Shown in pieces: positions 28,615 through 51,095 of a stretch of DNA of 64,000 nucleotides. Every line of letters starts with the position of its first letter. Position 1 is the first letter of the stretch. The notes beneath the pieces were generated by a model. That model did no database searches. It was not told the DNA's origin and saw only the letters and a list, made by a program, of their open reading frames with translations. A program made the translations under genes and the position numbers. The stretch is from the IMG/VR virus record IMGVR_UViG_2541047715_000004; one strand, given 5' to 3'. This stretch comes from a virus. Its lineage: Duplodnaviria > Heunggongvirae > Uroviricota > Caudoviricetes.

Positions 28615-31600
28615 CTATATCTGCCCACCTACTCCTTTGAACTTTTCAATAAACGTGACGATTTTCTGGAAAACGGTCTGTTTTTTCGTTTTATATTGCG
28701 GGTTTAACGGACTAAGTTTTGGTAATGTCTCGTTTAATTCTGTGCCATTTTCGGTGGCGTATTCGCGTTTTAAAGACGTGCGAATATAGCGTTTCGCCGC
28801 CTCTTCATTGAGATTTTCTTCTTTTATCAATGCTTCTGCTTCACGTTGCTGTTCGCGTTGAGCAAACGTAAAGAATGCCTCAATGATACTGGCTTTGTCT
28901 GGTAAATCATCCAGGTTCGTTTGCTGAATAAAATCGACCACCAGGCCCTCTTTCGCCCGGTTCCCCAGGCTTGAACGAATTAAGCGTTTGACCTCTTCGA
29001 TCATTTCGCCCTTGCCTTTATTTTGTCTGTTGTGTTCGAAAATCAGTCCAAGGATATAATCCAGGTTTATTTCCTGAGACTTCAGCAAATCGACCTCAAA
29101 AACTACGTCATCCCAGTCAGTGGTTGATTTCTCTTTTTTCTCAGCTTCTTTCTCACGGCGCTGCCAGTCGCGAATATCGTTATAGGCAGAACGATAATCC
29201 TGAATCTTGCGTTCAGCAGGGAGACGAATTGTTTGCAATTCAGCGAACTTTTCATCATCCACATAATGTTCTGCTTTGAATTTTTCTACCGCAACAGGAT
29301 CGCTAAGATCGATTTGTTGCAGGGCTTTCAGCGTGGCAAATTCATCATAGTTTTGCAGGATGTTCTCGGCACGCAGGTATTCACCAAACAGTTTTACGAA
29401 GTCTTTCTTCTCTTTTTCACTTTCAATACTGGCAGGGTCAGGGAACCGTTGTTCCAGTTCTGAAACTACTGCCATAAAGCCGCGTTTAGCTTCACCAGTG
29501 GCAGCATCTGTAAAGCCTTCCATATACTCAGCATAACTCTTTTCTAACACCACATTTTTAGTATTTTTATCACCAAACAGCGTTATGGCATCAATGGTTG
29601 AGCGTTCCAGATCCCGAAAAGTGACGATGTTACCGAAGGTTTTAGTAGCGTCATAAATGCGGTTGGTACGGGAGAATGCCTGCATCAGGCCGTGAAAACG
29701 CAAGTTTTTATCGACGAATAGCGTGTTCAATGTTGGAGCGTCGAAGCCGGTTAAAAACATCCCAACGACAATTAACAGATCGATATCCTGATTTTTAACC
29801 CGTTGGGCTAAATCACGATAGTAGTTCTGAAAACCGTTACTGTCGGTGCTGAAGTTAGTTTTAAAATAGCTGTTATACTCACGAATTGCAGCGTCAAGAA
29901 ACTCTTTAGCACTGCTGTCCATTGCGCTGGTATCAAAAGTTTCATCGGAAATTTCACCAATGGCATTTTGTTCTTCATTGGCGGCAAAGGAGAAGATTGT
30001 TGCAACACGCAGCGGTTTATAGGTAGCCGATTTATTAGCTGCTTCCTCTTGTAACCGTTTAAACGTCGCGTAATAGGCTTTCGCGGCATCCACGCTACTC
30101 ACTGCCAGCATGGCATTAAAGCCTTTGGAACCTGGGAAAGTACGGTGGGTCTTCTGGCGGAAGTTATTCAGAATATATTGCGTAATTTCCTGTATACGCA
30201 TGGGATGAAGAAATGCCTGCTGATTTTCAGCCGCACTCAGTTTTTTCTCGTCGGTTTCTGTCTCTAAAGATTTAAACTGTGGCCGCACATCGTTGTAGTC
30301 CACCTTGAATTTGAGCACTTTTTCATCACGAATCGCATCGGTAATTACATACGAATGCAATTCACGACCAAATACGCTGGCGGTCGTTTCTGAGCCTAAG
30401 GCGTTTTCCGGGAAAATAGGTGTGCCGGTAAAACCAAACTGATAATAGCGTTTGAATTTCTTCTTCAGGTTTTTCTGCGCTTCTCCAAACTGGCTGCGGT
30501 GACATTCATCAAATATAAACACCACTTGCTGATTGTATACAGGCAGGTCGCTTTCTGCTTTCATCAGGTTATTAAGTTTCTGAATAGTGGTGACGATAAT
30601 TTTGTTATCGTCCTTATCCAGATTGCGTTTAAGACCTGCGGTATTTTCCGAGCCGTTGACGCTGTCTGGCGAAAAACGCTTATATTCATTCATGGTCTGG
30701 TAATCGAGGTCTTTCCTGTCGACCACGAAGAAGACTTTATCAATAAAGTCCAGCTCTGTTGCCAGACGCGCGGCTTTAAAGCTGGTGAGGGTTTTACCTG
30801 AACCGGTAGTGTGCCAGATATACCCACCGCTTTCCGGTTTTGACCAGTTCTTCGCTGTAAAGGAACTCTTAATTTTCCACAGAATGCGCTCAGTGGCGGC
30901 AATCTGGTACGGTCGCATCACCAGTAGCGTTTGGCTAACATCGAATACGCTGTAGTTCACTAAGACATTAAGCAGGGTATGTTTCTGGAAAAAGGTGGCG
31001 GTAAAGTCTTTGAGGTCTTTAATCAGCGTGTTGTCTGATTTCGCCCAATTCATGGTGAAGTCAAAACTGTTTTTATCGCGCTTTGTCGTGTTGGCAAAGT
31101 AACGGGTATCGGTGCCGTTGGAAATGACAAACAGTTGCAGATACTTAAACAGAGAATTTTCGCTGTTAAAACTCTCTTTGCTGTAACGATGTATCTGGTT
31201 AAAGGCCTCACGAATCGCCACGCCGCGCTTTTTCAGTTCGATTTGTACCAGCGGTAAGCCATTAACCAGGATCGTGACGTCATAACGGTTAGCATGAGAA
31301 CCCGTCTGTTCAAACTGCTGGATAATCTGCACCTTGTTGCGCATGAGATTCTTTTTATCTATCAAATAGATGTTCTCAAGACGCTCGTCATCAAAAATAA
31401 AGTCGCAAATATAGTCGATATGGATTTTACGGGTCTTATCCAGGATGCCATCGCTCGGGTTATCCAGATACTGCTCCGTGAAACGCCGCCATTCGCTGTC
31501 ATTAAACACCACACCATTGAGGTTCTGAAGCTGTTCCCGAACGTTGGCCAGCATCGCCGACTGAGATTTTACGGAAATAAATTCATAGCCCTGATTCCGC

Positions 31601-31731
31601 AGATCCTGAATCAGTTCACGTTCCAGGTCCGATTCGCTCTGGTAGCTGTCGCCTGTTTGCTCGGCTTTGATGTACTTATCAAGAACGATAAAGTTATTGG
31701 ATTCAGCAATGGTGTGTGTCTGATGAGTCAT
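28615..31731 (-). CDS. hsdR: type I restriction enzyme R subunit (type IC, EcoR124-like)
   Basis: 1038 aa; N-terminus [22 protein letters not shown] matches my recollection of EcoR124I HsdR; helicase motifs [16 protein letters not shown]. Confidence 0.9.
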
Positions 31732-31852
31732 AGCGCATCCTTTGTGCCGTCTGGCAAGGGCCGGAAGGGCTTTAAGGGCGACTTCCGGCGTGTAAAAAAT
31801 AGTCTCTATATAGACCGGATGTTAAGGTGATCCGGTCGGTAGCAATGGTCAA

Positions 31853-33100
31853 TTAGTTACTGATAGTTTCAGGTTTGGGAAAACTGAACAGTAAATCACG
31901 ATAGTACTCGTATTGTTTCTGGCGCAACTCGATTTCACGCGGAAGACCTTCGGTGATGGAATTGGTCAAAGCATCAAATTTATCCAGTAATTTCACTATT
32001 TTTTGTTGTTCAACTAGCGATCTTTCAGGAGAATCAGGAAATGGTACTGGTATCATAAGTTTTCTTAAGTTATCATTATAAAGTCTTTTAATAGTTCCAC
32101 CTTCAGATATTCCCCATTTTGCTATTTTATAGAAATAGAATAAATATTTATTTAAAACTATTTTTTCATTATTTTCAATCCAGACAATATTGCTATCCTG
32201 GAAATATGATTCCCTACCATCAAATATAACAGTCCTGCCGATGGTCCCACTGGCAGAAATCAATACTTCGCCAACTTTAGGATAACTATATTTTTCTTTA
32301 AATTCATTAAATAGTTTTCTAGATATATAGGAATCGGGTTCCTTACCAAATGTCCCAATTTTATAAAATGGAATCTCTCCCTCAGAAGATGTTTGTGATT
32401 TTAGGATTCGTTTACACATACGAACTTCACCAATTTCCCCCAAAGCTTTCCACTCAACCTCACCCTCTTTAAAACTCAACAACTGGTCGCGATAGTAGTT
32501 GTATTGTTTTTTACGCATGCTAAGCTCAGCGGTAAGCTCAGCGGTAAGTGCAGTAAATTTATCCAGAATCCTGACGATTTCAGACTGGATAGCCAGCGAC
32601 TTTTCCGGGTTGTTGGGGCAAGGGATGGGGATAAGTAATTTACCTATATCTTTAGCATACAAATGATAAACAGTAGAACCTTTAACCATTTGCAATATCT
32701 TTTTTTTGTTATTTATTATGAAATTACTTAGATATCTACCATCAACACCAGAGCATCTAATAATCAAAATATCGCCGCCTAAAATAACGCCACTTTCTTG
32801 AATGCAACTAGCTGTAGCCAAACCTCTTGGTGTAACGTCTGACGTTGGCATTAGAACATCATTTTTTTCAGATAGAATTGACTCATTGATTGCTTGGTTT
32901 GTTTTTGAGCATACTTTGTCAATTATGGGACCATAATGAGTGAAAAGCTCACCGTAATGAATACAATATCTATTGCCATCTGGAGTTATTTTTTCTTTAG
33001 GTAAAGACTTCCCTTTTAAAAAAGTTGCTAATTTATTTAATGCTACCCACTCAACCTCAGCCCCATCCAGCAGTTTTTCCAGATAACTCAGCTCGCTCAT
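31853..33100 (-). CDS. hsdS: type I restriction-modification specificity subunit (type IC)
   Basis: Two target-recognition domains separated by conserved central region containing TAELTAEL; conserved C-terminal [22 protein letters not shown]. Confidence 0.9.
32522..32545 (-). repeat. 2 x 12-bp tandem repeat encoding TAEL-TAEL in hsdS central conserved region
   Basis: aagctcagcggt repeated twice on + strand (ACCGCTGAGCTT on coding strand). Confidence 0.85.
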
Positions 33101-34659
33101 GCCTGTACCTCGCTACCTTCAATCTCAGCAACAATCGCATCAATATCTTTACGCAACTGGTCGATTTTGCTGACCGTGGTTTTCAGCTCAGCATTCAGCT
33201 CAGCGATATCGATAATTTCGCGAGTATCTTTCGCTTCCACATAGCTGCTCACCGACAGGTTATAGTCATTCGCGACAACAGTCTCAAACGCAACAGATTT
33301 CGCCAGATGAGCAACATCTTCCTTGCTGGCAAATACCTGCATAATCTGTTCGATATGAGCATCGGTCAGAATGTTGTTGTTAGTCTCTTTTTTGAACAGT
33401 TCGCTGGCATCAATAAACTGAACTTTGGTATCCGTTTTATGTTTAGACAGCACCAGAATATTGACGGCAATAGTGGTGCCAAAGAACAGATTCGGTGCCA
33501 GTGAAATCACGGTTTCGACATAGTTATTGTCGACCAGATACTGACGGATTTTCTGCTCCGCGCCGCCACGGTAAAAAATGCCTGGGAAGCAGACAATCGC
33601 AGCGCGACCTTTGGCCGAAAGATAGTTCAGCGCATGTAATACAAACGCAAAGTCAGCTTTGGATTTGGGGGCCAGAACGCCAGCCGGGGCAAAACGTTCA
33701 TCGTTAATCAGCGTCGGGTCATCGCTGCCAATCCATTTCACCGAATACGGCGGGTTAGAAACGATGGCATCAAACGGTTTTTCATCTCTGAAGTGCGGCT
33801 CAGTCAGTGTATTACCCAGCTTGATATCAAACTTGTCGTAGTTGATGTTGTGCAAAAACATGTTCATACGCGCCAGGTTATAGGTCGTATGGTTGATTTC
33901 CTGACCAAAAAAACCTTCTTCGATGATATGGTCATCAAACTGTTTTTTCGCCTGCAACAACAGCGAACCGGAGCCTGCTGCCGGGTCGTAGATTTTGTTA
34001 ACGTGGGTCTGCCCGTGCATAGCCAGTTGTGCAATCAGCTTAGAGACGTGCTGCGGTGTAAAGAACTCGCCGCCGGACTTACCGGCATTCGCCGCATAGT
34101 TAGAAATCAGGAACTCATAGGCGTCACCGAACAGGTCAATCTGATGTTCATGGAAGTCACCAAGTTTTAGCCCTTCAACCCCTTTCAGAACCGCAGCCAA
34201 GCGGGCATTTTTATCTTTAACGGTGTTACCCAGGCGGTTACTGGTGGTATCGAAATCAGCAAACAAACCTTTGATGTCAGCTTCTGAAGGATAACCGTAA
34301 GCAGAACTTTCGATAGCAACGAAGATGCTGTTTAAATCTGCATTCAGTCTGTCATTAGTATTTGCTTTCGCAGCTACGTTGCAGAAAAGCTGACTGGGGT
34401 AGATGAAGTAGCCTTTAGTTTTGATGGCATCGTCTTTAATGTCATCAGTAATTACGCTGTCATCCAGTTTCGCATAACAGATACTGTCATCACCGGCTTC
34501 AATATAACTGGAAAAATTTTCGCTGATAAAACGGTAAAAAAGCGCGCCCAAAACGTACTGCTTAAAATCCCATCCATCGACTGAACCCCTGACATCGTTA
34601 GCAATTTGCCAGATCTGGCGATGAAGCTCTGCACGTTGTTGAATACTTGTCATTTTCAT
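33097..34659 (-). CDS. hsdM: type I restriction-modification methyltransferase subunit
   Basis: N6-adenine MTase motifs including NPPYS; stop overlaps hsdS start (ATGA). Confidence 0.9.
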
Positions 34660-34744
34660 CCACTTATTTCAGGTTTAAGTAATTGGATGTGATTCTACAG
34701 CAACTTGGATGCTTTAGCAGTTCGGACATTAGGTAACGAATGAC

Positions 34745-35009
34745 CTAATTAGAGCTTTTTGGAAAAGCGGTATTGTCGGTGCGATTTTAGCTATGTCTGG
34801 GTGTGCGATGGTGCAATACAATGACGGTGAAAAGGTTAGCATCCAGTTCGATGGCTGGTATTGGCTTGGATAGCCTGCCAAAAAACGCAGATAAAGCCTG
34901 TCAGCAATACGGAAAGTCTAAAGCTGTATATCTGCATAGCGCGAACGCTAACCCTCATCTTGCGCCTGGTACGGGTGTTCAGAATACCATCTGGAAATGT
35001 GAGCCTTAA
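34745..35009 (+). pseudogene. possible frameshifted small lipoprotein gene remnant
   Basis: Lipobox-like LAMSGC in one frame (ending at about 34866) continues in another frame as ORF 34803-35009; weak. Confidence 0.2.
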
Positions 35010-35011
35010 AC

Positions 35012-35263
35012 ATGAGCAACTGGAACATAGCAGCCAAAAGCCAGGAAGAAAGGAATAAAGTTAACGTTGACCTGGCTGCCAGGGGGGTTGCCTACAAAGA
35101 GCGATTGAACATACCCGTCATAGCGGAACAGGTAGCCCGTGAGCAACCTGAGAACCTGCGCACCTATTTCATGGAACGGCTACGGCACTACCGGCAGTTA
35201 AGCCTCCTGCTGCCAAAAGGAAACGATCCGGTATATCAGAAAGAAGATATAGCCAAAAAATAA
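35012..35263 (+). CDS. hypothetical protein
   Basis: 83-aa ORF upstream of the LexA box. Confidence 0.35.
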
Positions 35264-35323
35264 CGCGCCACCAGACGAGCGCAAAGCATCGCGCTATTGC
35301 ACACTTCAAGCATCTTTAATGTA

Positions 35324-35343
35324 TACTGTATGGATAAACAGTA
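35324..35343 (+). promoter_or_regulatory. LexA (SOS) box
   Basis: TACTGTATGGATAAACAGTA fits CTGT-N8-ACAG consensus, 19 bp upstream of the umuD-like start. Confidence 0.8.
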
Positions 35344-35361
35344 CTCTGAGGTGAAAACGCT

Positions 35362-35751
35362 ATGGGCTTCCCTTCTCCTGCGGCGGATTATGCTGAGAGC
35401 CGTATTTCTCTTGATCAGCAGATAATTAGACATCCTTCAGCGACCTACTTCATGAGGGCAGCTGATAGTCATCATCGTGAGGGAATATTACAGGGTGCAT
35501 TGCTGGTGGTCGATTCCTCACTTACCCCGGTTGATGGTTCTCTGCTTGTATGCGCTCTGGATGGGGAATATCGCGTAAAAAGATACCGGAAGTACCCACG
35601 TCAGCATCTGGAGGATTTAAGAACCGGTAAGAAGGAAGCATTGCCAAAGGATGACGATGGATGCACGGGCAGCAATGCCGTGTTTGGTGTGATCACTCAC
35701 ATTATCAACGACGCAAGAAGTGGCGAGTTTGATGATTGTCCCGTGATGTAG
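35362..35751 (+). CDS. UmuD'/HumD-like S24 peptidase-fold protein lacking the N-terminal arm
   Basis: Begins MGFPSPAADYAE, equivalent to E. coli UmuD residues right after the Cys24-Gly25 autocleavage site; no umuC partner follows. Confidence 0.65.
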   Translation: MGFPSPAADYAESRISLDQQIIRHPSATYFMRAADSHHREGILQGALLVVDSSLTPVDGSLLVCALDGEYRVKRYRKYPRQHLEDLRTGKKEALPKDDDGCTGSNAVFGVITHIINDARSGEFDDCPVM

Positions 35752-35762
35752 GAGAACTGATT

Positions 35763-35788
35763 AGGCGGTGCAATGCACCGCCTTTTAT
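35763..35788. terminator. bidirectional terminator hairpin
   Basis: Hairpin aggcggtgc-aat-gcaccgcct with T-run, between convergent umuD-like and mrp genes. Confidence 0.55.
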
Positions 35789-36888
35789 CACACTGCGCGG
35801 AATGCGATTTCGCCAGGTATTACTTCACCTTGCCAATACATTTGGGCGGCAACGCGATCTGCGAGGTCACGATAAATAGCCGTAAATTCGCTATCTGGAC
35901 GACTAATAACGGTTGGTGTTCCGTTATCCAGATCTTCACGAAGAGAGATATGAAGTGGCATTTGGCCTAACAACTGCGTGTTGTATTTCTCGGCCAGTTT
36001 CTGTGCGCCACCGGTGCCAAAAATTGGCTCGTGATGACCGCAGTTACTGCAAATATGCACACTCATGTTTTCGACGATACCCAGTACCGGCACTTCGACT
36101 TTTTCGAACATCACAATGCCTTTCTTCGCATCGATCAGCGCGATGTCTTGCGGCGTAGTTACCACAACCGCACCAGTTACAGGAATGTTCTGCGCCAGCG
36201 TCAACTGAATATCACCAGTGCCCGGCGGCATATCGAGAACGAGATAGTCCAGATCAGGCCATAGAGTTTCCTGCAACATCTGCATCAGCGCCTTGCTGGC
36301 CATCGGTCCACGCCACACCATTGCATTGTCGTCGGTGACCAGATAACCAATAGAGTTGGTTGCCAGGCCATGAGACATGATAGGTGCCATGTGAGTACCG
36401 TCAGGTGAGGTTGGACGTTGGTTTTCCGCGCCCAGCATGGTTGGAATTGATGGACCATAGATATCGGCATCCAAAATACCAACTTTCGCACCTTCAGCAG
36501 CCAACGCCAGTGCCAGGTTTACCGCCGTGGAGGATTTACCCACGCCGCCCTTGCCTGAGCTGACGGCGATAATGTTCTTAACGCCATTAATGCCTGGTTG
36601 GTTTTTGACGCGCTTAAGCGTGGCAATGTTGTACGACAGCTTCCAGTCAATAGCCTTTGCGCCAGTGATACGGAGCAGATCACCACTACATTGCTCTTTC
36701 AGGTCTTCAAAAGGCTTATTCCACACGAAAGGCATGATTAGTTCGACATGCAGTGTGTCATCCATCAACGCAACATGGTGTAACGCTTTAAGCGTAGTCA
36801 GGTTGTGTTTCAGGGTTGGGTGCTGAAAATTAGCCAGCGTACCGGCTACCATTGCTCTCAGGGCATCCGGCGATTTGGACTCGCTCAT
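35788..36888 (-). CDS. apbC: iron-sulfur cluster carrier ATPase Mrp/ApbC
   Basis: Deviant Walker A SGKGGVGKSS, CxxC motif ICSNCGHH; divergent from metG as in E. coli. Confidence 0.9.
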   Translation of the reverse strand: MSESKSPDALRAMVAGTLANFQHPTLKHNLTTLKALHHVALMDDTLHVELIMPFVWNKPFEDLKEQCSGDLLRITGAKAIDWKLSYNIATLKRVKNQPGINGVKNIIAVSSGKGGVGKSSTAVNLALALAAEGAKVGILDADIYGPSIPTMLGAENQRPTSPDGTHMAPIMSHGLATNSIGYLVTDDNAMVWRGPMASKALMQMLQETLWPDLDYLVLDMPPGTGDIQLTLAQNIPVTGAVVVTTPQDIALIDAKKGIVMFEKVEVPVLGIVENMSVHICSNCGHHEPIFGTGGAQKLAEKYNTQLLGQMPLHISLREDLDNGTPTVISRPDSEFTAIYRDLADRVAAQMYWQGEVIPGEIAFRAV

Positions 36889-37045
36889 CCCGTCTCCTTT
36901 ATTTTAATTTGCGCAATTGTCGCCTTGTAGTGTACTCCAGCTACGACATTTAATCATTTATGAGAAATGCTGTTATCACATGGCAGACATAAGGCCATTT
37001 TGTTACTATCAAGCCCCTTTTCACTACAAAGAAGTAATGCCTACT

Positions 37046-39079
37046 ATGACCCAAGTCGCGAAGAAAATTCTGGTGACGTGCGCGCTGCCGTACGCTAACG
37101 GCTCAATCCACCTCGGCCATATGCTGGAGCACATCCAGGCTGATGTCTGGGTTCGTTACCAGCGAATGCGCGGCCACGAGGTTAATTTCATCTGTGCCGA
37201 CGATGCCCACGGTACGCCGATCATGCTGAAAGCACAGCAGCTTGGTATCACACCGGAGCAGATGATTGGCGAAATGAGTCAGGAACACCAGACTGATTTC
37301 GCAGGCTTTAACATCAGCTATGACAACTATCACTCGACGCACAGCGAAGAGAACCGCCAGCTGTCTGAGCTTATCTATACTCGCCTGAAAGAGAACGGTT
37401 TTATTAAAAACCGCACTATCTCTCAGTTGTACGACCCGGAAAAAGGCATGTTCCTGCCGGATCGTTTTGTGAAAGGCACCTGCCCGAAATGTAAAGCGCC
37501 AGATCAATACGGCGATAACTGTGAAGTCTGCGGCGCAACATATAGCCCGACTGAATTGATCGAGCCGAAATCGGTGGTTTCTGGCGCTACCCCGGTAATG
37601 CGTGATTCCGAACACTTCTTCTTTGATCTGCCTTCTTTCAGCGAAATGTTGCAGGCATGGACCCGCAGCGGCGCGTTGCAGGAGCAGGTGGCGAACAAAA
37701 TGCAGGAATGGTTTGAATCCGGCCTGCAACAGTGGGATATCTCCCGAGATGCGCCTTACTTCGGTTTTGAAATTCCGAACGCGCCGGGCAAATATTTCTA
37801 CGTCTGGCTGGACGCGCCGATTGGCTACATGGGTTCCTTCAAGAATCTGTGCGACAAACGCGGCGACACTACCAGCTTCGACGAATACTGGAAGAAAGAC
37901 TCCACCGCCGAGCTGTACCACTTCATCGGTAAAGATATCGTTTACTTCCACAGCCTGTTCTGGCCTGCCATGCTGGAAGGCAGCAACTTCCGCAAGCCGA
38001 CCAACCTGTTTGTTCACGGCTATGTGACGGTGAACGGCGCGAAGATGTCCAAGTCTCGCGGCACCTTTATTAAAGCCAGCACCTGGCTGAATCATTTTGA
38101 CGCCGACAGCCTGCGTTACTACTACACTGCGAAACTCTCTTCGCGCATTGATGATATCGATCTCAACCTGGAAGATTTTGTTCAGCGCGTGAATGCCGAT
38201 ATCGTGAACAAAGTGGTTAACCTGGCCTCCCGTAATGCAGGTTTTATCAACAAACGTTTTGACGGCGTGCTGGCAAGCGAACTGGCTGACCCGCAACTGT
38301 ACAAAACCTTCACTGATGCCGCTGAAGTGATTGGTGAAGCGTGGGAAAGCCGCGAATTTGGCAAAGCTATCCGTGAAATCATGTCACTGGCTGACCTGGC
38401 TAACCGCTATGTTGATGAACAGGCTCCGTGGGTGGTGGCGAAGCAGGAAGGCCGCGATGCCGACCTGCAGGCGATTTGCTCTATGGGCATTAACCTGTTC
38501 CGCGTGCTGATGACGTACCTGAAACCGGTACTGCCGAAACTGACTGAACGTGCAGAAGCATTCCTGAATACAGAACTGACCTGGGATGGTATCCAGCAAC
38601 CGCTGCTGGGCCATAAAGTGAATCCGTTCAAGGCACTGTATAACCGTATCGATATGAAACAGGTGGAAGCACTGGTGGAAGCATCCAAAGAAGAAGTGAA
38701 AGCCACAGCTGCACAGGTAACTGGCCCACTGGCTGACGACCCGATTCAGGAAACCATCACCTTTGACGACTTCGCCAAAGTTGACCTGCGTGTGGCGCTG
38801 ATTGAAAACGCGGAGTTTGTCGAAGGTTCTGACAAACTGCTGCGTCTGACACTGGATCTCGGTGGTGAAAAGCGTAATGTCTTCTCAGGCATCCGTTCTG
38901 CTTATCCAGACCCACAGGCACTGATTGGTCGTCACACCATTATGGTGGCTAACCTGGCTCCGCGTAAAATGCGCTTCGGTATCTCCGAAGGCATGGTGAT
39001 GGCTGCTGGCCCCGGCGGGAAAGATATCTTCCTGTTAAGCCCGGATGCTGGTGCTAAACCAGGCCACCAGGTTAAGTAA
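37046..39079 (+). CDS. metG: methionyl-tRNA synthetase
   Basis: 677 aa, near-identical in pattern to E. coli MetG (HIGH motif [13 protein letters not shown], zinc knuckles CPKC...CEVC); true start ATG 37046 inside the longer listed ORF. Confidence 0.95.
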
Positions 39080-43858: not shown

Positions 43859-44002
43859 ATGGGCGATTTCAAGAAACGCCTGAAGGAAAGAGCCGAGATG
43901 GTCAGAAAGCAAAACGCCTCTTCTGTCATCAGATACGCAAGGCAGTTTAGTCGCAACAACAAATCAGTTGAGGAAAAGATCCTTAGCGTAATCGTGCGAT
44001 AA
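43859..44002 (+). CDS. small basic ORF (below 60-aa cutoff, uncertain)
   Basis: 47 codons MGDFKKRLKERAEMVRKQ..., followed by hairpin aaggccatcagcattggtggcctt. Confidence 0.2.
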   Translation: MGDFKKRLKERAEMVRKQNASSVIRYARQFSRNNKSVEEKILSVIVR

Positions 44003-44206
44003 TTATTAAGGCCATCAGCATTGGTGGCCTTAAATGACCATCTTGTTTCCCGCAGGCTAAAAACACCAACCTCTTACCTCCAGGCAACCGACAAACCCAC
44101 CTGTTCCCGTCCGGCTACCGCAACTTTCCACTTTGACGCCTTATTCGTACAACGATAATTAACGCCAACAAGAAAACAATTTGTTATTTACGATAAGGAA
44201 TTAATC

Positions 44207-44689
44207 ATGAATTTTATCGCTACTGTAAACGCACCCGCACATGGCAATATCGCTGTAACGTTCTCTGACATTGAAAAACGAGTACTTGGTGCATGGCGCG
44301 ACAATGAGACGGTAGAACTGTCAGCACAAGAAAAATGCATTATTGCACGCGACATCATTGGCAATCGTCGTTACTCGCGGGTATTTGAGAAAGCGTATGT
44401 GGTAAATTCTGGATTCGGAACGTTCGTCTTTCCGGTGCGCTCCGGGCGATTCTGCCAGTCCAAGCTGATTGAGTTCGCTACGCAGATTTCTGTCTGGATT
44501 AAAACTCAATCGTCGTTCAAATTTTCCGACGATGAAGCAGTATCGCAGGGGATGCGGATCGCCAACAATGCGATTAAATGCAAAAACATTACGTATACCG
44601 CTGGCGTTGATACATGGAAACTGTTTTGCGCTAACTTTATGCTGAATGTATACGCAAGCAACCGCATCCACATCCTTGATGGCGTGTAA
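44207..44689 (+). CDS. hypothetical protein
   Basis: 160-aa ORF with GAAAACAATTTGTT motif upstream. Confidence 0.5.
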   Translation: MNFIATVNAPAHGNIAVTFSDIEKRVLGAWRDNETVELSAQEKCIIARDIIGNRRYSRVFEKAYVVNSGFGTFVFPVRSGRFCQSKLIEFATQISVWIKTQSSFKFSDDEAVSQGMRIANNAIKCKNITYTAGVDTWKLFCANFMLNVYASNRIHILDGV

Positions 44690-44691
44690 CT

Positions 44692-44722
44692 GAGAAGAGG
44701 GCCAGAAACGGCCCTTTCTCTA
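44692..44722 (+). terminator. rho-independent terminator
   Basis: Hairpin gagaagagggcc-agaaac-ggccctttctc. Confidence 0.5.
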
Positions 44723-44741
44723 TAGCCACCAGCTGCCGCAG

Positions 44742-44830
44742 GGAAATTTTCAGAAACGGCGAGGAACGTATTCATGAGCCGACGGGGAACGGCCAGGATT
44801 TTTTCGGGAAACGGCTGCATTCGCCTTTAT
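44742..44830. repeat. second GGGAAACGG-like repeat cluster
   Basis: cagaaacggcgagg, ggggaacggccagg, gggaaacggctgc at about 22-bp spacing. Confidence 0.5.
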
Positions 44831-44939
44831 GTAGAAAAAACATCGGGAAGCTGGTGGAATCCAACCAGCGGTTGTCGGACAGGTGAGCGGGGAAAATTAT
44901 GATGACTTTCGTCGCCTGAGACATCCAGATTTCTTTCGT

Positions 44940-45065
44940 AGCGTAATCACATATGTGATTAAGTGGTGTGATTATGTGAAAAATCACGCGCACATAATAC
45001 GAGAGCGGATACGGAACAAAACAAAATGCCGATCCGCGCCGACAATTAAACGCGGATCACATAGC
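44940..45065. promoter_or_regulatory. cluster of palindromes (putative operator region)
   Basis: Perfect 16-bp palindrome AATCACATATGTGATT; ATTATGTG...CACATAAT; GATCCGCG...CGCGGATC. Confidence 0.35.
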
Positions 45066-45281
45066 AAGAATAAAAGCCAATGATTAACCATACACCATAA
45101 CGCAATATAACGCGATTTAAGCGCGTTAATGCGCTAAGTAATGGGTATGTACTGGTAAGGATATAAAAGCGCGTCTATGGCGTTATTTTGGCGCTTATTT
45201 TTATGTTGTTGGTGTGAGTCAAAGACAATAAAAAAAGCGCCATCATTGGCGCGTTATGGTGGAAGTATTGGAAACGAAAAA

Positions 45282-45300
45282 AGCGCCCATAGTGGGCGCT
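45282..45300 (-). terminator. terminator hairpin for minus-strand operon (repeated hairpin family)
   Basis: agcgccca-tag-tgggcgct with T-run on minus strand; the same 20-mer aaagcgcccatagtgggcgc recurs at 45549-45568. Confidence 0.5.
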
Positions 45301-45305
45301 CGATT

Positions 45306-45536
45306 TTATTTATGTAAACTGATTTCAAATCCCATTTCTACAAACGCTTTTAACATTAAAAATATATCAGCGTCATTCATGTCTGCTTTTTTTCGCTCCT
45401 GGTCGCTCAATAAGTCAATTTTGCGCGTCGTTTCATCTATAAGCTCGACTGCGCGCCCAGCGTAACCAGCGATCCCAGCGATGCGATTAACAAAATATTC
45501 ATTACGTACGTTAACGCCAGCGATAAGAATAAACAT
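45306..45536 (-). CDS. small hypothetical protein
   Basis: Start taken at MFILIAGV with AAGGAG RBS; second gene of a two-gene minus-strand operon. Confidence 0.4.
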   Translation of the reverse strand: MFILIAGVNVRNEYFVNRIAGIAGYAGRAVELIDETTRKIDLLSDQERKKADMNDADIFLMLKAFVEMGFEISLHK

Positions 45537-45583
45537 GATTAAGCTCCTTAAAAGCGCCCATAGTGGGCGCAAGATTCCATTAA

Positions 45584-46234
45584 TTACGCTTTGAAAGCAT
45601 CAGCCAGATAGTTATAGAAATCATTTTTAATGAAGCGATATTGCTGCGTACCAGCTTTTGCGCTTCCCATTCCTTTGACTTTCTCAACAAGTCCAAGACG
45701 TTCGCAAAGATTGATCAACTGGTTGGCTTGAGTATAGCCAGCGTCCAATTTAATTTCGCACGCTTTTTTAGCTTCATTCATTAAATCGAAAACAGCGCCA
45801 TTGGTGAACGTGTCGATCTCGTCGTTAATCATATCGATTAAAGCGAATACACGAGATCCTGACATATCAGCGATGGAATAAACGCATTTACCAGCTTTAA
45901 TTGATTTAACCAGATAGACCAGTTTTTCCAGTGAATAACTATTAGTCATTGCATCACGGAAAAATACTTCTGGCGCTTGTTTACTTGCTTTGATCGCATA
46001 GTAGAAAACAGAGCATAATTTTTCGTCTTCTACTGCGTTCACAACGTTGTTGATGAAGTAAGCAAGTTTAGTGGTCGCAGCTTGCATGTTTGCTTTGTCT
46101 GCTTTTGTGTGCGTACCATTTTTATAATGTTCGTTATATGTTTGAGTTGCCAGATCTGCTTTTTCGCGCAGCTCGTCGGATACAATGGCAGCAGCTTCAA
46201 TGATGGATTTTTTAGAAATGATAATGTTAGCCAT
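45584..46234 (-). CDS. hypothetical protein
   Basis: 216-aa ORF in AT-rich block with AT-rich upstream region 46235-46480. Confidence 0.5.
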   Translation of the reverse strand: MANIIISKKSIIEAAAIVSDELREKADLATQTYNEHYKNGTHTKADKANMQAATTKLAYFINNVVNAVEDEKLCSVFYYAIKASKQAPEVFFRDAMTNSYSLEKLVYLVKSIKAGKCVYSIADMSGSRVFALIDMINDEIDTFTNGAVFDLMNEAKKACEIKLDAGYTQANQLINLCERLGLVEKVKGMGSAKAGTQQYRFIKNDFYNYLADAFKA

Positions 46235-46531
46235 GATTTTATTCCTTAGTATAAATATTAAAATTTAACTCAAGAAAGAAAGTGTTTTGCACTCGTTCCT
46301 GATGCGTTCAATTATCGATACGCGAAAAAAGATTGCAAGTGTTTTTTTAAGTTTTTTTGCAGGGATGAAAGTCTTAGAAATAAAAGCGAGATCGTCGAAG
46401 GTGTTCCCTAAATAAATAATAAATTCCGGCTTTTGACCTTATATATTTATACGGGGGAGAATTGAATGAGTGTTAAACGAATGGCATGTAAAATAATAAC
46501 CGGACTTAGCCGGTTATTACCCTTATAGAAA

Positions 46532-47053
46532 TTAAAACGGAAGGATTCGTTCAACCCAATCGAAGAAAATAAGTATTTTTCTACCGTCTTCCAACTTAAG
46601 TGTGACTAGACAGGCGTCAACGCCATCTGACGTTCCCTCAATTTCGCGACCGTCTGCCATGTAGACCCTTATAGATTTGCCGTTTTGGTAAGCCTGACGA
46701 CATATCTTAAAAAAGTCACGACGTGATGGCTGATTAACCATCTGTTCATTGTTTAGCGTTAGTCGACCTGTGAATGAAGTGTCAACCTCTTCTATGCCCG
46801 ACTCAATTGTGCTAATGCGCTCAAGAGGGAGCCTTATACGATTTGTGTTGCTAAGCGGATCTGGTGTGAGGTTCAGCTTATTTCTTGCGCTCAATAGCCC
46901 GTAGACATACATGCAAAACACTTGGCCGTCTTCGAGAGTGACTCTTACAGGAAATTTTGCACTCCGCCAGAAGAGCAAGGTGCGCTCAGCATGTTCGTAG
47001 TCTCGCGGCCAGACTTCAGCCGGTATGCCGTAGGTGATGTCCAATGTTCTCAT
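46532..47053 (-). CDS. hypothetical protein
   Basis: 173-aa ORF overlapping upstream gene by ATGA; terminator hairpin aataaccggacttagccggttatt downstream. Confidence 0.5.
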   Translation of the reverse strand: MRTLDITYGIPAEVWPRDYEHAERTLLFWRSAKFPVRVTLEDGQVFCMYVYGLLSARNKLNLTPDPLSNTNRIRLPLERISTIESGIEEVDTSFTGRLTLNNEQMVNQPSRRDFFKICRQAYQNGKSIRVYMADGREIEGTSDGVDACLVTLKLEDGRKILIFFDWVERILPF

Positions 47054-47643
47054 TCTGATACTCTTAGAGGTGTTTTCAGCAACCCAAATTTAAATTCTTT
47101 GTTACCAACGACAAAGAAGGGAACCTCAACATAGATTTTTTTATCGACGGATTTAGAGTTAGCTGTTTTATGTATGTCACGAACGATACGTTTTGAGATA
47201 TTTTCATCGATAAACAATACCTTTCCACTTGTATTCCCTTCAGCCTTGGCGTAAGTAACGATAGGCTCTTCATTGCCAACCCTAATGTTTACTTGGCAAC
47301 CTGTTGTAGCCATTTCATCACAGTAAAGTGTGCCGTCTTGAACTTCCAAAACAATTCCAGATGGCTTCATGGCTTCGTCAGAGCTTACATTAACGTTTTC
47401 TGGTACAGCGGTCCCGTTAATTTGCAACCGTAATCTTTCTTTTCCTGCATTAAGTATTGTTTCTTCTGCGTTATCTGAGAATCTGAACCAGACTGGTTGA
47501 ATCAGACCTCGTGATTCGTATTTTAGTACGTCTTCAGAAGTATACATGCTGTACGTTTTTTGCATGTCGGAGACGATATCTGACAACGCATTTGCGGAAA
47601 ATGACGAGAGGTATATACAAGCAAGAAGTAACGAACGTTTCAT
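47050..47643 (-). CDS. hypothetical secreted protein
   Basis: N-terminal signal peptide MKRSLLLACIYLSSFSANA. Confidence 0.5.
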   Translation of the reverse strand: MKRSLLLACIYLSSFSANALSDIVSDMQKTYSMYTSEDVLKYESRGLIQPVWFRFSDNAEETILNAGKERLRLQINGTAVPENVNVSSDEAMKPSGIVLEVQDGTLYCDEMATTGCQVNIRVGNEEPIVTYAKAEGNTSGKVLFIDENISKRIVRDIHKTANSKSVDKKIYVEVPFFVVGNKEFKFGLLKTPLRVSE

Positions 47644-47823
47644 TTTTATACAGCGATTATTGCAAAGTAGAATTATAAATATCCAATAGTCTCAAACGAT
47701 AAGTTTTCAACTGTAAATAGCAGACGTGTTTCTCTAAAAGCTGTGCGGCAAAGGCGTTGTTGCCGCACTCTGTCTATTAGCTCTTCAAGTCTGGCAATTC
47801 TGAAATTGACTAAGAATCCAATA

Positions 47824-48102
47824 TTACGGCAGTTTGCTTAGAATTTGCTCTAAATCTTCCTTTGTCATATTAGAGTTCTCATAGATGCGCATGATTTTCT
47901 CACGAGCCTTAGCAGAGACTCCAACGGCAGATGAAACTTTGTCAAATTCAGCCATTGTCATCGCTTCCAGAATGGTATTGATAACTTCAGCCTTAGACAT
48001 TTTGATGTTTTTTTCTTTTAGTTTCATTTGAAACTTTCCAAGTTTGTCATTGGCCTTATCGGACAATGCCACCTGACAATAAGTTGTTTTCTTTTCGCTC
48101 AT
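47824..48102 (-). CDS. small hypothetical protein
   Basis: 92 aa, immediately downstream of helicase gene; terminator hairpin gtgcggcaa...ttgccgcac follows on minus strand. Confidence 0.45.
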   Translation of the reverse strand: MSEKKTTYCQVALSDKANDKLGKFQMKLKEKNIKMSKAEVINTILEAMTMAEFDKVSSAVGVSAKAREKIMRIYENSNMTKEDLEQILSKLP

Positions 48103-48104
48103 AA

Positions 48105-49664
48105 CTAATCTCGTTTCAGAACTCCAAAATCGAATGCGCCATCAATAGGCAATACACCTTCTGCAAAGCCAGGTGTGGTGTCGATGATGTGTTTTCGCTC
48201 ATAAGAGTGAGACAACAGGTATTTGTTGCTAATGTCAATGAAATCAGTGATAAAACACACGTTTGCCTGATTTTTTTTGGCTCGTAAGCCACGACCGACA
48301 CGCTGTCTCATTTCAACTTCTGCTTTCCCACCACCAGCAAGAATGACCGCACCAACGCTTGGCACATCAACACCGACATCCAGAATAGTCGAGCCTATTA
48401 AAACATCTATTTCTCCAGACGCTAAACTGTTCAGCTTTGCTTGCCTTGTCGCCTGGTTAGATTCCCCATAGATGAAGTCAACTCTAAGGCCGGACTCTTT
48501 CATCATTTCCATCAGGATTTGCCCGTGGCGTTTAAGACGAACCAGAGTCATACAATTGAGAGAATGTTGCTTATAGAGCAATGCTTCGCGAACAATGGCC
48601 TCGTTACGTCCCAAATTATACACGATCCCCAACTGATAAGCCTTTTGGTAGGCGGTGCTCATACCAACTCTAAAATTGAGGTGTTTGTTGGCAAGTTCGG
48701 CCTTGATTCTGGCCTCGTCTGGCTTGTAGGCAACTTTATGATAAAGGAAGTACGGCTTTGCCAGAATGCCTCGATCAATCAGGTACTTTTCTGTGACTTT
48801 AATTTCAATTCGCCCGGCCACCGCCATCAGGCGCATGTTGGCTTCCGTCGAATCCTTCATGAACGGCGTGGCTGTAAGCGCCAGACGATAGTCTGCGTTC
48901 ACACATAATCTGGCGATGTCATAGAAATTTGAGCCTGAAGACTCATGCGCCTCTTCCAGAATAAGAAGAGAGACACTTGAAAGGAAGCGTTTCACCAACT
49001 CCCGACGTTTGAGGTGGTAGCTCTTTTTATCTGGTGTTGCATCGCGTGGTGGTTCTTCGAGGAAACTTGCAAGAGTTTGAACTGTAGCGACGTTGATATG
49101 TCGTGATACCTGGAACTCACCCGAGCCAATGACTCCAACCTTTTGGTCTTTTAACCACGGTTCGCCATTTTCGGCGCGGTAGTCGATGGATCTCTGGAAG
49201 TTTTCGGCCATTTGAAACATCAGAACAGAGCGGGTTGTTAAAAATAATGTCATTCGACCGATACGTGCAGCTGCTTTGCAGGCAACATTAGATTTCCCGC
49301 CACCAGTAGCGATCTGCGCAATCATCATTCCCTCTCGAACCAGTGTTTCCACAGTCTGATCCTGATACGCATAATCAGGATTGTATGGGAATGGGTTAAC
49401 CGCCGGATTTGGTTTTCCAAGCGCCGGGGCTTTGTCTTTGCGGATATGAACACATTTGATGCCCGCCTTGTTCAAGTTCGCCGCTACAGGCTTGGCAAAG
49501 CCAGCAGGGAACGAGTTTTTACTCCAGTTGAACATCGTGCTTGTGCCCTTCCAGTCGCCAGTCTCGACTTCGTAGCTCAACATTTGCTGCACCAGTTGCT
49601 TTACCTTGTCATCTGCGCCAGAAATAAGCGCATTTACTGCGTTAGATACAATCCGAACAGTCAT
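48105..49664 (-). CDS. superfamily 2 DEAD/DEAH-type helicase
   Basis: Motif I ATGGGKS, motif II LILEEAH, motif III LTATP, motif VI QRVGRGLR. Confidence 0.7.
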   Translation of the reverse strand: MTVRIVSNAVNALISGADDKVKQLVQQMLSYEVETGDWKGTSTMFNWSKNSFPAGFAKPVAANLNKAGIKCVHIRKDKAPALGKPNPAVNPFPYNPDYAYQDQTVETLVREGMMIAQIATGGGKSNVACKAAARIGRMTLFLTTRSVLMFQMAENFQRSIDYRAENGEPWLKDQKVGVIGSGEFQVSRHINVATVQTLASFLEEPPRDATPDKKSYHLKRRELVKRFLSSVSLLILEEAHESSGSNFYDIARLCVNADYRLALTATPFMKDSTEANMRLMAVAGRIEIKVTEKYLIDRGILAKPYFLYHKVAYKPDEARIKAELANKHLNFRVGMSTAYQKAYQLGIVYNLGRNEAIVREALLYKQHSLNCMTLVRLKRHGQILMEMMKESGLRVDFIYGESNQATRQAKLNSLASGEIDVLIGSTILDVGVDVPSVGAVILAGGGKAEVEMRQRVGRGLRAKKNQANVCFITDFIDISNKYLLSHSYERKHIIDTTPGFAEGVLPIDGAFDFGVLKRD

Positions 49665-49746
49665 AAACCTCTTTCCTTAGTGCCTTTTGTATGTTATTTG
49701 GCTATTATAATAAGTAAGTGATTACTTAGTGGATTGTAGCAATAAA

Positions 49747-50427
49747 ATGGATGTAAAAATCACGATTTTGCAGGTTGATGTTGCCAACCTTCGCCCGAAT
49801 ACCTGGAACACCAATTCGGTTGGTGCGCAGAATTTTGAAAAACTGAAAGGTTCTATCGAAAAATTGGGCTTTTTTAAGCCAATTTTGGCTCGTGAACTTG
49901 AAGATGGATTTTTTGAAATCCTAGGCGGCGAACATCGCTGGCGTGCTGCTATTGAGCAAGGAATTTCAACGGTTCCGGTGCTTTCTGTGGGCAAAATTAG
50001 CGATGTCGTAGCTAAACAGATGTCACTGGTGGACAACGAGCGATACGGTGAAGACGACCAAATCGCATTGCAACGCTTCATTGAAGAAATTCAGTCAGAA
50101 CTTGACTATCAACTGTCTGAAATCGCCCCGTATGACGACGAAATCTCGATGGTTTTAGCAAAAGAGGCGGCAATCGACCTTGAAGCACTGGAGGCGTTGT
50201 CTCGTGGTAGTGATGAGCCTGTCGATACCGACAAACGAGAGAAAACCGAACGTGTGGGGGCGGAACATCAGACCATGCGCTTCAAAGTAACTTTCGATGC
50301 GTCAGATCGTGTTGCAGAAACCATAAAAAACATCATCAAAGAGCAGGCTATTAACACCGGTAATGAAATGGAGAACGCTGGTGAGGCTCTGGTGTGGCTG
50401 GTCGACTACTACAAGGAGCGTATGTAA
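49747..50427 (+). CDS. ParB/Srx-fold nuclease-domain protein
   Basis: ILGGEHRWRAA matches ParB box II type motif; start taken at MDVKITIL. Confidence 0.55.
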   Translation: MDVKITILQVDVANLRPNTWNTNSVGAQNFEKLKGSIEKLGFFKPILARELEDGFFEILGGEHRWRAAIEQGISTVPVLSVGKISDVVAKQMSLVDNERYGEDDQIALQRFIEEIQSELDYQLSEIAPYDDEISMVLAKEAAIDLEALEALSRGSDEPVDTDKREKTERVGAEHQTMRFKVTFDASDRVAETIKNIIKEQAINTGNEMENAGEALVWLVDYYKERM

Positions 50428-51095
50428 TGACCAAAAAGTTTGAAATCGTATATCGCGACCCGGCAGATCTTATTCCCTATGAGATGAATGCCAAAAAGCA
50501 TGATGAACAGCAGATCCGAGATCTGGCCGCAGCCATTAAAAAGCGCGGATTTGACCAGCCAATTACGGTCGATAAGAACGACGTAATTATTACTGGCCAC
50601 GGCCGCCGTGAGGCTGCAATTTTTGCTGGACTTGAGCGCGTGCCGGTTATTGTTCGCGATGATCTGAGTGATGACGAGGTACGTGCAAAGCGCCTTGAAG
50701 ATAACCGACTTGCCAGCATTGATTACGATGCAATTAAGCTACAGAAAGAGCTTGAGTCGCTTGTTCTGGACGATATCGAGGTTTTCGGCTTCGAAGAGCG
50801 TGAGTTGAATGTTCTCGTTGGCAGTATGACAGAAGAAATGGACACCGACTCGCTAGTTATCGATCTTGGCGAAGAAACTAAACGACAGAAGGATGAACAC
50901 ACCGAGATCAGTCGTGAAGTTGCAGCGGAAGAAGTACGTGTTGTCGACGTATTGGGCTTTAAAACGCTCCCTGCTGGCTCTGCCATTGTTGTTGGTGATT
51001 TGCTTGCCCATATGGAAGAAATGACGGGAGAAAGCGGGGTAGACGCATTTGTGGCATATGCGGAGAAGATCTCTTCCGGGGAGATGGCTGCATGA
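50427..51095 (+). CDS. second ParB/Srx-fold domain protein
   Basis: IITGHGRREAA motif; start taken at MTKKFEIVY, overlapping upstream stop. Confidence 0.55.
   Translation: MTKKFEIVYRDPADLIPYEMNAKKHDEQQIRDLAAAIKKRGFDQPITVDKNDVIITGHGRREAAIFAGLERVPVIVRDDLSDDEVRAKRLEDNRLASIDYDAIKLQKELESLVLDDIEVFGFEERELNVLVGSMTEEMDTDSLVIDLGEETKRQKDEHTEISREVAAEEVRVVDVLGFKTLPAGSAIVVGDLLAHMEEMTGESGVDAFVAYAEKISSGEMAA

Follow-up and report, generated by a model that had tools for sequence, protein, structure and literature searches.

The window analyzed here is a 64,000-nucleotide (nt) stretch of a Caudoviricetes virus genome (IMG/VR record IMGVR_UViG_2541047715_000004), and our subject is a pair of adjacent genes on its minus strand, denoted gene A and gene B, encoding proteins of 197 and 173 amino acids (aa). 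Since the phage and plasmid matches agree with the order of the neighboring genes, the window was assigned from its sequence to an SSU5/pHCM2/pMT1-type phage-plasmid of Escherichia coli. Phages with matches to the region are CMS-2020a, PhiR41_1, and Cyrano (Escherichia) and SSU5 (Salmonella), and the 647 bases queried (47054-47700, gene A and its upstream region) are 100% identical to NZ_CP010144.1, a 114-kb E. coli plasmid. The pair adjoins genes for a DEAD/ResIII helicase, a 92-aa protein, and two ParB-like proteins, in an order identical to that in SSU5, Cyrano (= pLF82), Klebsiella plasmids, and Yersinia pestis pMT. With helicase and ParB genes around it, the pair is located in the plasmid-maintenance arm of the phage-plasmid.

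A first-pass annotation had described a secreted protein and a cytoplasmic partner that are translationally coupled through an ATGA overlap, have their own terminator, and may act at the cell surface, for example in superinfection exclusion or immunity. The list of open reading frames (ORFs) and the sequence confirmed both genes and their overlap (Table 1). The coupled transcription unit for one exported and one cytoplasmic product also held, with a signal-peptide pattern in gene A and no hydrophobic segment in the 173-aa protein on the Kyte-Doolittle scale. Both ORFs are genuine genes with homologues at 46-99% identity, and both are under purifying selection, with ratios of nonsynonymous to synonymous substitution rates (dN/dS) of 0.09-0.24 for gene A and 0.05-0.22 for gene B. 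The overlap itself is ordinary: 4-nt overlaps join at least four further same-strand gene pairs in the window, and in related loci A and B meet at ATGA, overlap by 1 nt (TAATG), or are 6 nt apart.

Table 1 Features of the gene A/gene B locus and its flanks (positions in the window).
Feature	Coordinates	Strand	Basis or detail
Gene A, 197-aa predicted exported protein	47050..47643	minus	ORF list and sequence; phrog_18942
Gene B, 173-aa FljA-family protein	46532..47053	minus	Pfam PF03614 Flag1_repress; phrog_1444
ATGA shared by the stop of gene A and the start of gene B	47050..47053	minus	sequence
AAGAG, Shine-Dalgarno-like element for gene B, inside gene A	47061-47065		7 nt upstream of the gene B start
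Intrinsic-terminator-like hairpin directly after gene B, AAGGGUAAUAACCGG-N6-CCGGUUAUUAUUUU	46490..46523	minus	fold energy and conservation
Hairpin after the upstream 92-aa gene (stop 47824)	47743..47768	minus	-22.1 kcal/mol, z = -4.2; inverted repeat
Sigma-70-like promoter candidate upstream of gene A, TGGATA-18-AATAAT with TG	47656..47685	minus	9/12 matches

Profile searches and a structural model place gene B in the FljA family, as a member of a distinct clade. PF03614 (FljA, repressor of phase-1 flagellin) matched with E = 1.4e-68 and a score of 230.5 bits (cut-off 24), residues 5-170 covering profile positions 1-170 of 170, and phrog_1444 matched with E = 1.1e-89. Gene B is thus a full-length member of the family that contains FljA of Salmonella enterica (hin-fljB-fljA), FljA(z66) of pBSSB1, and the flagellin-linked repressors of E. 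coli. It is 34% identical over 172 aa to FljA from a Salmonella hin-flagellin-fljA locus (E = 5e-36) and 37% identical over its whole length to a flagellin-linked repressor on an E. coli plasmid (E = 9e-38). The proteins are of similar size (173 aa for gene B, 175-179 aa for flagellin-linked FljA) and have the signature motifs YG..AE.WPRDY, SRRDFF.IC, and FDWV.RI in common. Public records already name relatives of gene B 'putative repressor of phase 1 flagellin' (SSU5) and 'repressor of fliC' (S. Typhi), and our literature search found no paper linking FljA homologues to SSU5-type phage-plasmids. The SSU5 relative itself, SSU5_121 (L003:4043-4489), is 148 aa as annotated and lacks the ITYG..AEVWPRDY motif found in every other member; a wrongly called start or a truncation of the allele is the probable cause.

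The AlphaFold2 model of gene B, built from 26 sequences, has a predicted local distance difference test score (pLDDT) of 82.5 and a predicted template modeling score of 0.79. It shows a disordered, highly conserved N-terminus, which carries the motif ITYGxPAEVWPRDY, followed by two tandem helix-plus-five-strand units. As in the Sm/Hfq-like fold, an N-terminal helix precedes a five-stranded bent beta-sheet that can be superposed on Hfq/Sm, and the fold matches were Hfq and the Sm-like ligand-binding part of WYL-domain proteins. Gene B would differ from Hfq, Sm/LSm, and the Sm-like WYL domains in having two Sm-like domains fused in one chain, and it has no sequence-level membership in the Hfq/LSm families (Pfam LSM/Hfq E = 0.08-0.09, below threshold). 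A sequence search of the PDB found no solved structure of the FljA family. Two fused Sm/Hfq-like domains are predicted for the FljA/Flag1_repress family, and they fit an RNA-binding translational repressor. This prediction agrees with the published behavior of flagellin-linked FljA: under FljA(z66), fliC mRNA accumulates without FliC protein, and the plasmid encoding it makes motile E. coli non-motile (PMC2652032). The predicted tandem fold offers a structural rationale for how FljA acts.

To describe the distribution of the family, we searched PLSDB by tblastn with FljA and obtained 824 plasmids. The FljA probe is not an exact database entry; it served only to find annotated FljA genes. The flagellin-linked type, with at least 59% identity to FljA, was carried by 16 of the 824 plasmids, and the remaining ~808 carried the phage-plasmid clade, with ~35-37% identity. 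By host, the phage-plasmid clade was distributed among Klebsiella (340), Escherichia (224), Enterobacter (91), Yersinia (62), Salmonella (60), Citrobacter (27), Cronobacter (10), and Shigella (6). A neighboring core gene encoding a 216-aa protein was found in 815 PLSDB plasmids with an almost identical host split, and because of these near-equal counts and hosts we consider gene B essentially universal, that is, a core gene, in SSU5-type phage-plasmids. The exact 173-aa protein is present on at least 1000 contigs. A pattern scan of genome contigs with an alignment of FljA-like proteins recovered six phage-plasmid-like loci only, the patterns being too strict for chromosomal fljA.

The hairpin after gene B has a 14-bp stem and a U-run, with a folding energy of -15.3 kcal/mol (z = -3.2). 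It is nearly invariant behind the gene B stop codon in ~25 related loci from six genera, with one compensatory change from A-U to G-C in loci L010/L011. The terminator noted in the first-pass annotation is therefore present as a structure but, on this sequence comparison, belongs to the core gene B. The hairpin is conserved better than the adjoining coding sequence (~60-70% protein identity), which exceeds the need of a plain terminator, and it could have a role beyond termination as a candidate protein- or RNA-binding site. Its palindrome (46494-46519) is unique in the window, with no repeats that might serve as operators; two further copies of the half-site AATAACCGG lie at 50643 and 59492, and their meaning is doubtful.

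Gene A is an orphan. The N-terminus of its product, MKRSLLLACIYLSSFSANA followed by LSD, starts with a basic n-region and continues with a hydrophobic core, where the Kyte-Doolittle profile of the protein peaks (residues 5-15), and with A-x-A before the likely cleavage site, so that residues 1-19 form the signal peptide and cleavage is predicted to follow ANA. Of ten homologues compared, nine retain this pattern; every full-length homologue has A-x-A (or T-x-A) before L/V/I-S-D, and a distant homologue, P0100, has a signal peptide of its own. The product is accordingly predicted to be secreted through Sec and signal peptidase I. Cysteines C108 and C116 are invariant in the family, even in P0100, which fits a periplasmic disulfide. 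The lipoprotein check proposed in the first-pass annotation was negative: there is no conserved lipobox (L-x-x-C), and Cys9, only 9 residues from the N-terminus, is confined to E. coli alleles, the homologues from Klebsiella and Salmonella having another residue there. Outer-membrane barrels typically have an aromatic C-terminal end; the gene A product ends in …LRVSE, without one.

Homology searches placed gene A in a small family. It matched nothing in Pfam, NCBIfam, or PADLOC, and its sole PHROG, phrog_18942, is unannotated. A profile search of 5.8 billion proteins returned 15-17 clusters, whose named sources are enterobacterial and most of which lie on ~100-113 kb contigs. When 1.84 billion representatives were searched exhaustively with HMMER, only eight entries came back, including P0100 (E = 3.5e-6). 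In looking for deeper homology, the large protein searches added only fragments and P0100, no PDB sequence matched, and no relatives were detectable outside SSU5-type phage-plasmids in the searches run. Comparison with the SSU5/pMT1 lipoprotein family gave an hhalign probability of 1.8%, and remote homology to it was rejected. The structural model of gene A is poor (pLDDT 51), and fold searches with it returned nothing meaningful; the structure-based comparison called for in the first-pass annotation was thus informative for gene B but not for gene A. The family was found on 65 plasmids of PLSDB, ~8% of the elements carrying gene B, and in one phage record. A tblastn search against 50,697 phage records found it in CMS-2020a only, and the exact 197-aa protein is common in E. 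coli and Shigella (221 contigs). Gene A is unclassifiable at present.

Comparison of related loci showed that the alleles of A and B have different histories. Loci L005 and L006 have identical A genes and B genes that are only 75% identical, whereas L005 and L023 have B genes that are 96% identical and A genes that are 55% identical. Between the window and CMS-2020a the difference is 7% in A and 14% in B. These incongruent identities indicate that the two genes recombine independently. Homology between the window and PhiR41_1, whose B is 99% identical, is interrupted from 47041, a position 12 nt inside B, to 47820, where the 92-aa gene ends; between the window and CMS-2020a, homology ends at the gene A start codon. 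In SSU5, pMT, and Klebsiella plasmids the slot occupied by gene A (47054-47823) is filled by phrog_890 lipoproteins; PhiR41_1 has a 266-aa lipoprotein there together with a 117-aa secreted protein, and Cyrano has the 266-aa lipoprotein. Further relatives carry a 99-aa secreted protein or cytoplasmic proteins without an assigned role. In one Klebsiella plasmid a remnant of A lies beside an intact B, and in a divergent element the distant homologue P0100 is encoded on the opposite strand, away from B, and a cytoplasmic 183-aa gene overlaps B.

On the sequences compared, the simplest reading is that the interval between the 5' end of B and the 92-aa gene is a recombination hotspot, and that a minus-strand gene landing there becomes co-transcribed with B. 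The hotspot seems to specialize in envelope proteins. A dedicated partnership between A and B is disfavored by the allele histories, the homology breakpoints, the low GC content of A (39.2%, compared with 46.4% for B and 45.9% for the window), and the unrelated genes found in the slot. The 173-aa "partner" of the first-pass annotation does adjoin gene A and is coupled to it, but it is a core gene of the known FljA family that occurs without A in >90% of the elements and whose alleles recombine independently of those of A.

Taken together, the pair is an ordinary accessory operon, and we propose, with a probability of roughly 0.6, that it is bicistronic with two unrelated functions. Gene B would be an FljA-type RNA-binding translational repressor, most likely of host flagellin mRNA and under certain conditions only, and gene A an independent exported cargo. 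By homology, gene B would bind an mRNA leader and block its translation. The only known target of the FljA family, shown for flagellin-linked members, is the 5' untranslated region of host fliC mRNA (PMC2652032), and for this reason gene B most likely lets the resident phage-plasmid silence the flagellin of its host under certain conditions. Gene A may have been inserted as a low-GC cargo by recombination between gene B and the former promoter of B, which would place it in co-transcription and translational coupling with B. Its product would be exported by Sec, cleaved by signal peptidase I, and would then probably be a disulfide-bonded, beta-rich periplasmic protein acting at the envelope independently of B. 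Like fljA, gene B comes second in an operon of two genes, the first of which has a product that leaves the cytoplasm. In fljA loci, however, the upstream gene encodes flagellin and not a Sec-exported orphan, and the locus of gene B has no invertase switch.

Several observations weigh against this proposal. Gene B lacks one defining context of FljA, linkage to a flagellin gene: none was found beside the phage-plasmid clade in the phage-plasmid loci examined. Klebsiella pneumoniae, Y. pestis, and Shigella are non-motile. Although most carriers of gene B (Klebsiella, Yersinia, Shigella) are regarded as non-flagellate or non-motile, the gene stays intact with a dN/dS of ~0.1. An intact and selected gene in such hosts is the main reason to think that fliC is not its sole target. 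The target of gene B is assigned by homology, and a search of the window for a mimic of the fliC leader gave only chance-level 9-12-mers. The promoter candidate in Table 1 is a weak consensus match that does not exceed chance (5 sites in the region, compared with 7.9 expected from shuffles), no promoter upstream of gene A is conserved across lineages, where the upstream regions are unrelated, and no sigma-28 promoter consensus was found upstream of gene A. The call of gene A export was made by sequence inspection and not with a trained predictor. Furthermore, every close gene A homologue, in loci from E. coli, Klebsiella, Salmonella, and metagenomes, lies directly upstream of gene B, which leaves room for a functional link. 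Finally, strain LF82, which carries the gene B orthologue on Cyrano, swims fliC-dependently in lysogeny broth (LB) soft agar (PMC10595154).

Expression data for Cyrano bear on the last point. In the RNA-seq table of PMC9928086, given as log2(fpkm+5) for two replicates per condition (fpkm, fragments per kilobase per million), the FljA-like CYRAN_114 had values of 4.16/4.19 in LB overnight, 7.07/7.39 and 6.87/7.07 after 1 h and 6 h in Dulbecco's modified Eagle medium (DMEM), and 8.11/8.06 and 7.98/8.07 after 1 h and 6 h in macrophages. The adjacent lipoprotein gene CYRAN_115 had values of 4.98/4.68 in LB overnight, 7.87/8.17 and 9.21/9.15 in DMEM, and 9.43/9.24 and 8.67/8.78 in macrophages at the same times (PMC9928086). 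CYRAN_114 is up ~15-fold in macrophages. In LB it had 18 normalized reads against an element median of 9.8, under the authors' five-fold moron cut-off (PMC9928086). The orthologue of gene B is therefore expressed from the resident element under host-like conditions. The motility of LF82 in LB means that its flagellin is not silenced constitutively, and it is compatible with the low expression of the orthologue in that medium; the flagellar genes of LF82 are down in macrophages (PMC10595154). These data are compatible with conditional flagellin silencing and are not proof of it. The regulation of the window allele may differ from that in Cyrano, since the upstream region is different.

A possible, less probable alternative is that gene B regulates RNAs of the phage-plasmid itself or non-flagellin mRNAs of the host, for example in replication, partition, or early lytic functions, and that flagellin repression by FljA is a specialized offshoot. 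The universality of the clade in elements whose carriers mostly lack flagella would be explained, as would the purifying selection on gene B, its position among helicase and ParB maintenance genes, the absence of an adjoining flagellin gene, the motility of LF82, and an identity to flagellin-linked FljA of only 34-37%, in a separate clade. However, the most conserved FljA motifs are retained in gene B, and neither a fliC-leader-like site nor another repeated candidate site was found in the window. Moreover, a Klebsiella locus and an E. coli locus have B genes that are 96% identical; the elements may move between motile and non-motile genera, and selection could then come from the motile hosts.

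A bolder version, which we regard as doubtful, holds that the phage-plasmid proteins form a large, distinct clade of tandem-Sm RNA-binding regulators acting mainly on something other than flagellin, with Salmonella FljA as a domesticated offshoot, or that the clade silences flagellin conditionally inside animal hosts, and that gene A encodes a new kind of periplasmic envelope-modifying factor. The first option is raised because most hosts are regarded as lacking flagella, and the second because of the ~15-fold rise of the Cyrano orthologue in macrophages. Hin resembles phage invertases, which offers a parallel for FljA as a domesticated phage protein.

The strongest form of the idea in the first-pass annotation, that A and B are the two parts of a dedicated anti-flagellum or anti-superinfection module, is improbable. 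In such a module B would stop flagellin synthesis and A would act in the periplasm on the flagellar apparatus or a receptor, so that incoming phages are blocked by both. Gene A lies immediately upstream of B in 7/7 sequenced contexts of close homologues (46-93% identity; 4-nt overlap, 1-nt overlap, or 6-nt gap), an exported lipoprotein takes this position in SSU5 and pMT1 too, and the slot is rich in envelope proteins. Yet B does without A in the great majority of elements, recombination at the junction shuffles their alleles, the Klebsiella remnant of A and the displaced P0100, with its 183-aa replacement, lie in elements that keep B, and A matches no defense or exclusion family. Older literature described FljA as a transcriptional repressor. 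That gene B is a DNA-binding transcriptional regulator with gene A among its regulated products is very improbable: most database records do name it 'transcriptional regulator' and WYL-domain transcription factors are among its fold matches, but neither Pfam nor the model shows a helix-turn-helix or other DNA-binding domain, the matches concern Hfq and the Sm-like ligand-binding part of the WYL proteins, and FljA(z66) leaves fliC mRNA present without protein (PMC2652032). A toxin-antitoxin reading of the pair was rejected, gene B being mostly alone and gene A exported.

Returning to the proposed accessory operon, the part assigned to gene A resembles that of phage morons with envelope proteins. 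Among these, the lipoproteins Cor and Llp and the periplasmic Sim of phage-plasmid P1 act in superinfection exclusion. Like them, gene A is small, exported in prediction, lower in GC than its surroundings, and variably present among close relatives, and its slot holds lipoproteins elsewhere. Unlike them, it is not a lipoprotein, and it has no sequence or fold similarity to any of the three. Of the moron hallmarks, atypical composition and presence/absence variation were seen, the promoter is a weak match, and the terminator is shared with gene B, to which it belongs. Neither A nor B showed sequence or fold similarity to known superinfection-exclusion or anti-phage defense families. Superinfection exclusion or immunity, as suggested in the first-pass annotation, has no direct support, gene A having no PADLOC match, exclusion-family link, or fold match. 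A surface-acting role of this kind is possible for gene A; the indirect support is limited to the lipoproteins and other exported proteins that relatives carry in the slot, and to the protection from flagellum-dependent phages that a repressor of flagellin might in principle give. No structural PHROG or Pfam family matched A or B, and the homology to virion assembly proteins that the first-pass annotation had named as a refutation was thus not found.

In clinical E. coli, Shigella, Klebsiella, Salmonella, and Yersinia pestis, phage-plasmids of the SSU5/pHCM2/pMT1 type occur very frequently. Should the FljA homologue universal to these elements silence flagellin, carriage would alter host motility, H-antigen expression, innate recognition of flagellin, and sensitivity to flagellum-dependent phages. 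If gene B binds other RNAs, it would be an uncharacterized post-transcriptional regulator at the center of phage-plasmid biology. Gene A adds a further orphan exported protein to a hotspot seemingly given to envelope proteins.

Around the pair, the hairpin after the 92-aa gene probably ends the helicase/92-aa transcript and would thereby bound the transcription unit of the pair on its upstream side, and an Rfam scan of 44000-50000 gave no match. The helicase (48105-49664) matched the PADLOC model PbeA (E = 6.6e-23) besides generic DEAD/ResIII/Helicase_C domains, and the Cyrano record names its counterpart as UvsW helicase.

Among FljA-like loci elsewhere, L012 lies in an E. coli chromosome of 5.2 Mb (CP125919.1, 386158-396682). 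It carries a degraded FljA-like gene, P0088, which is 48% identical with many substitutions and is surrounded by short remnants of phage-plasmid genes, suggesting an integrated, decaying SSU5-type element. Loci L017 and L018 are of the kind typical of enterobacterial phage-plasmids but come from bins labeled 'Candidatus Fimivivens' / 'Bacillota bacterium', and the protein P0094 is labeled Gemella morbillorum; these labels probably reflect mis-binning or contamination.

Elsewhere in the window, the block 28615-39079 contains a complete type I restriction-modification system on the minus strand (hsdR 28615-31731, hsdS 31853-33100, hsdM 33097-34659). Beside it lie housekeeping-type copies of apbC/mrp (35788-36888, minus strand) and of the methionyl-tRNA synthetase gene metG (36917-39079, plus strand). 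The block was found again in 38 E. coli plasmids at 97-99% identity, those listed being ~110-200 kb in size, and the methionyl-tRNA synthetase gene is present in Cyrano too.

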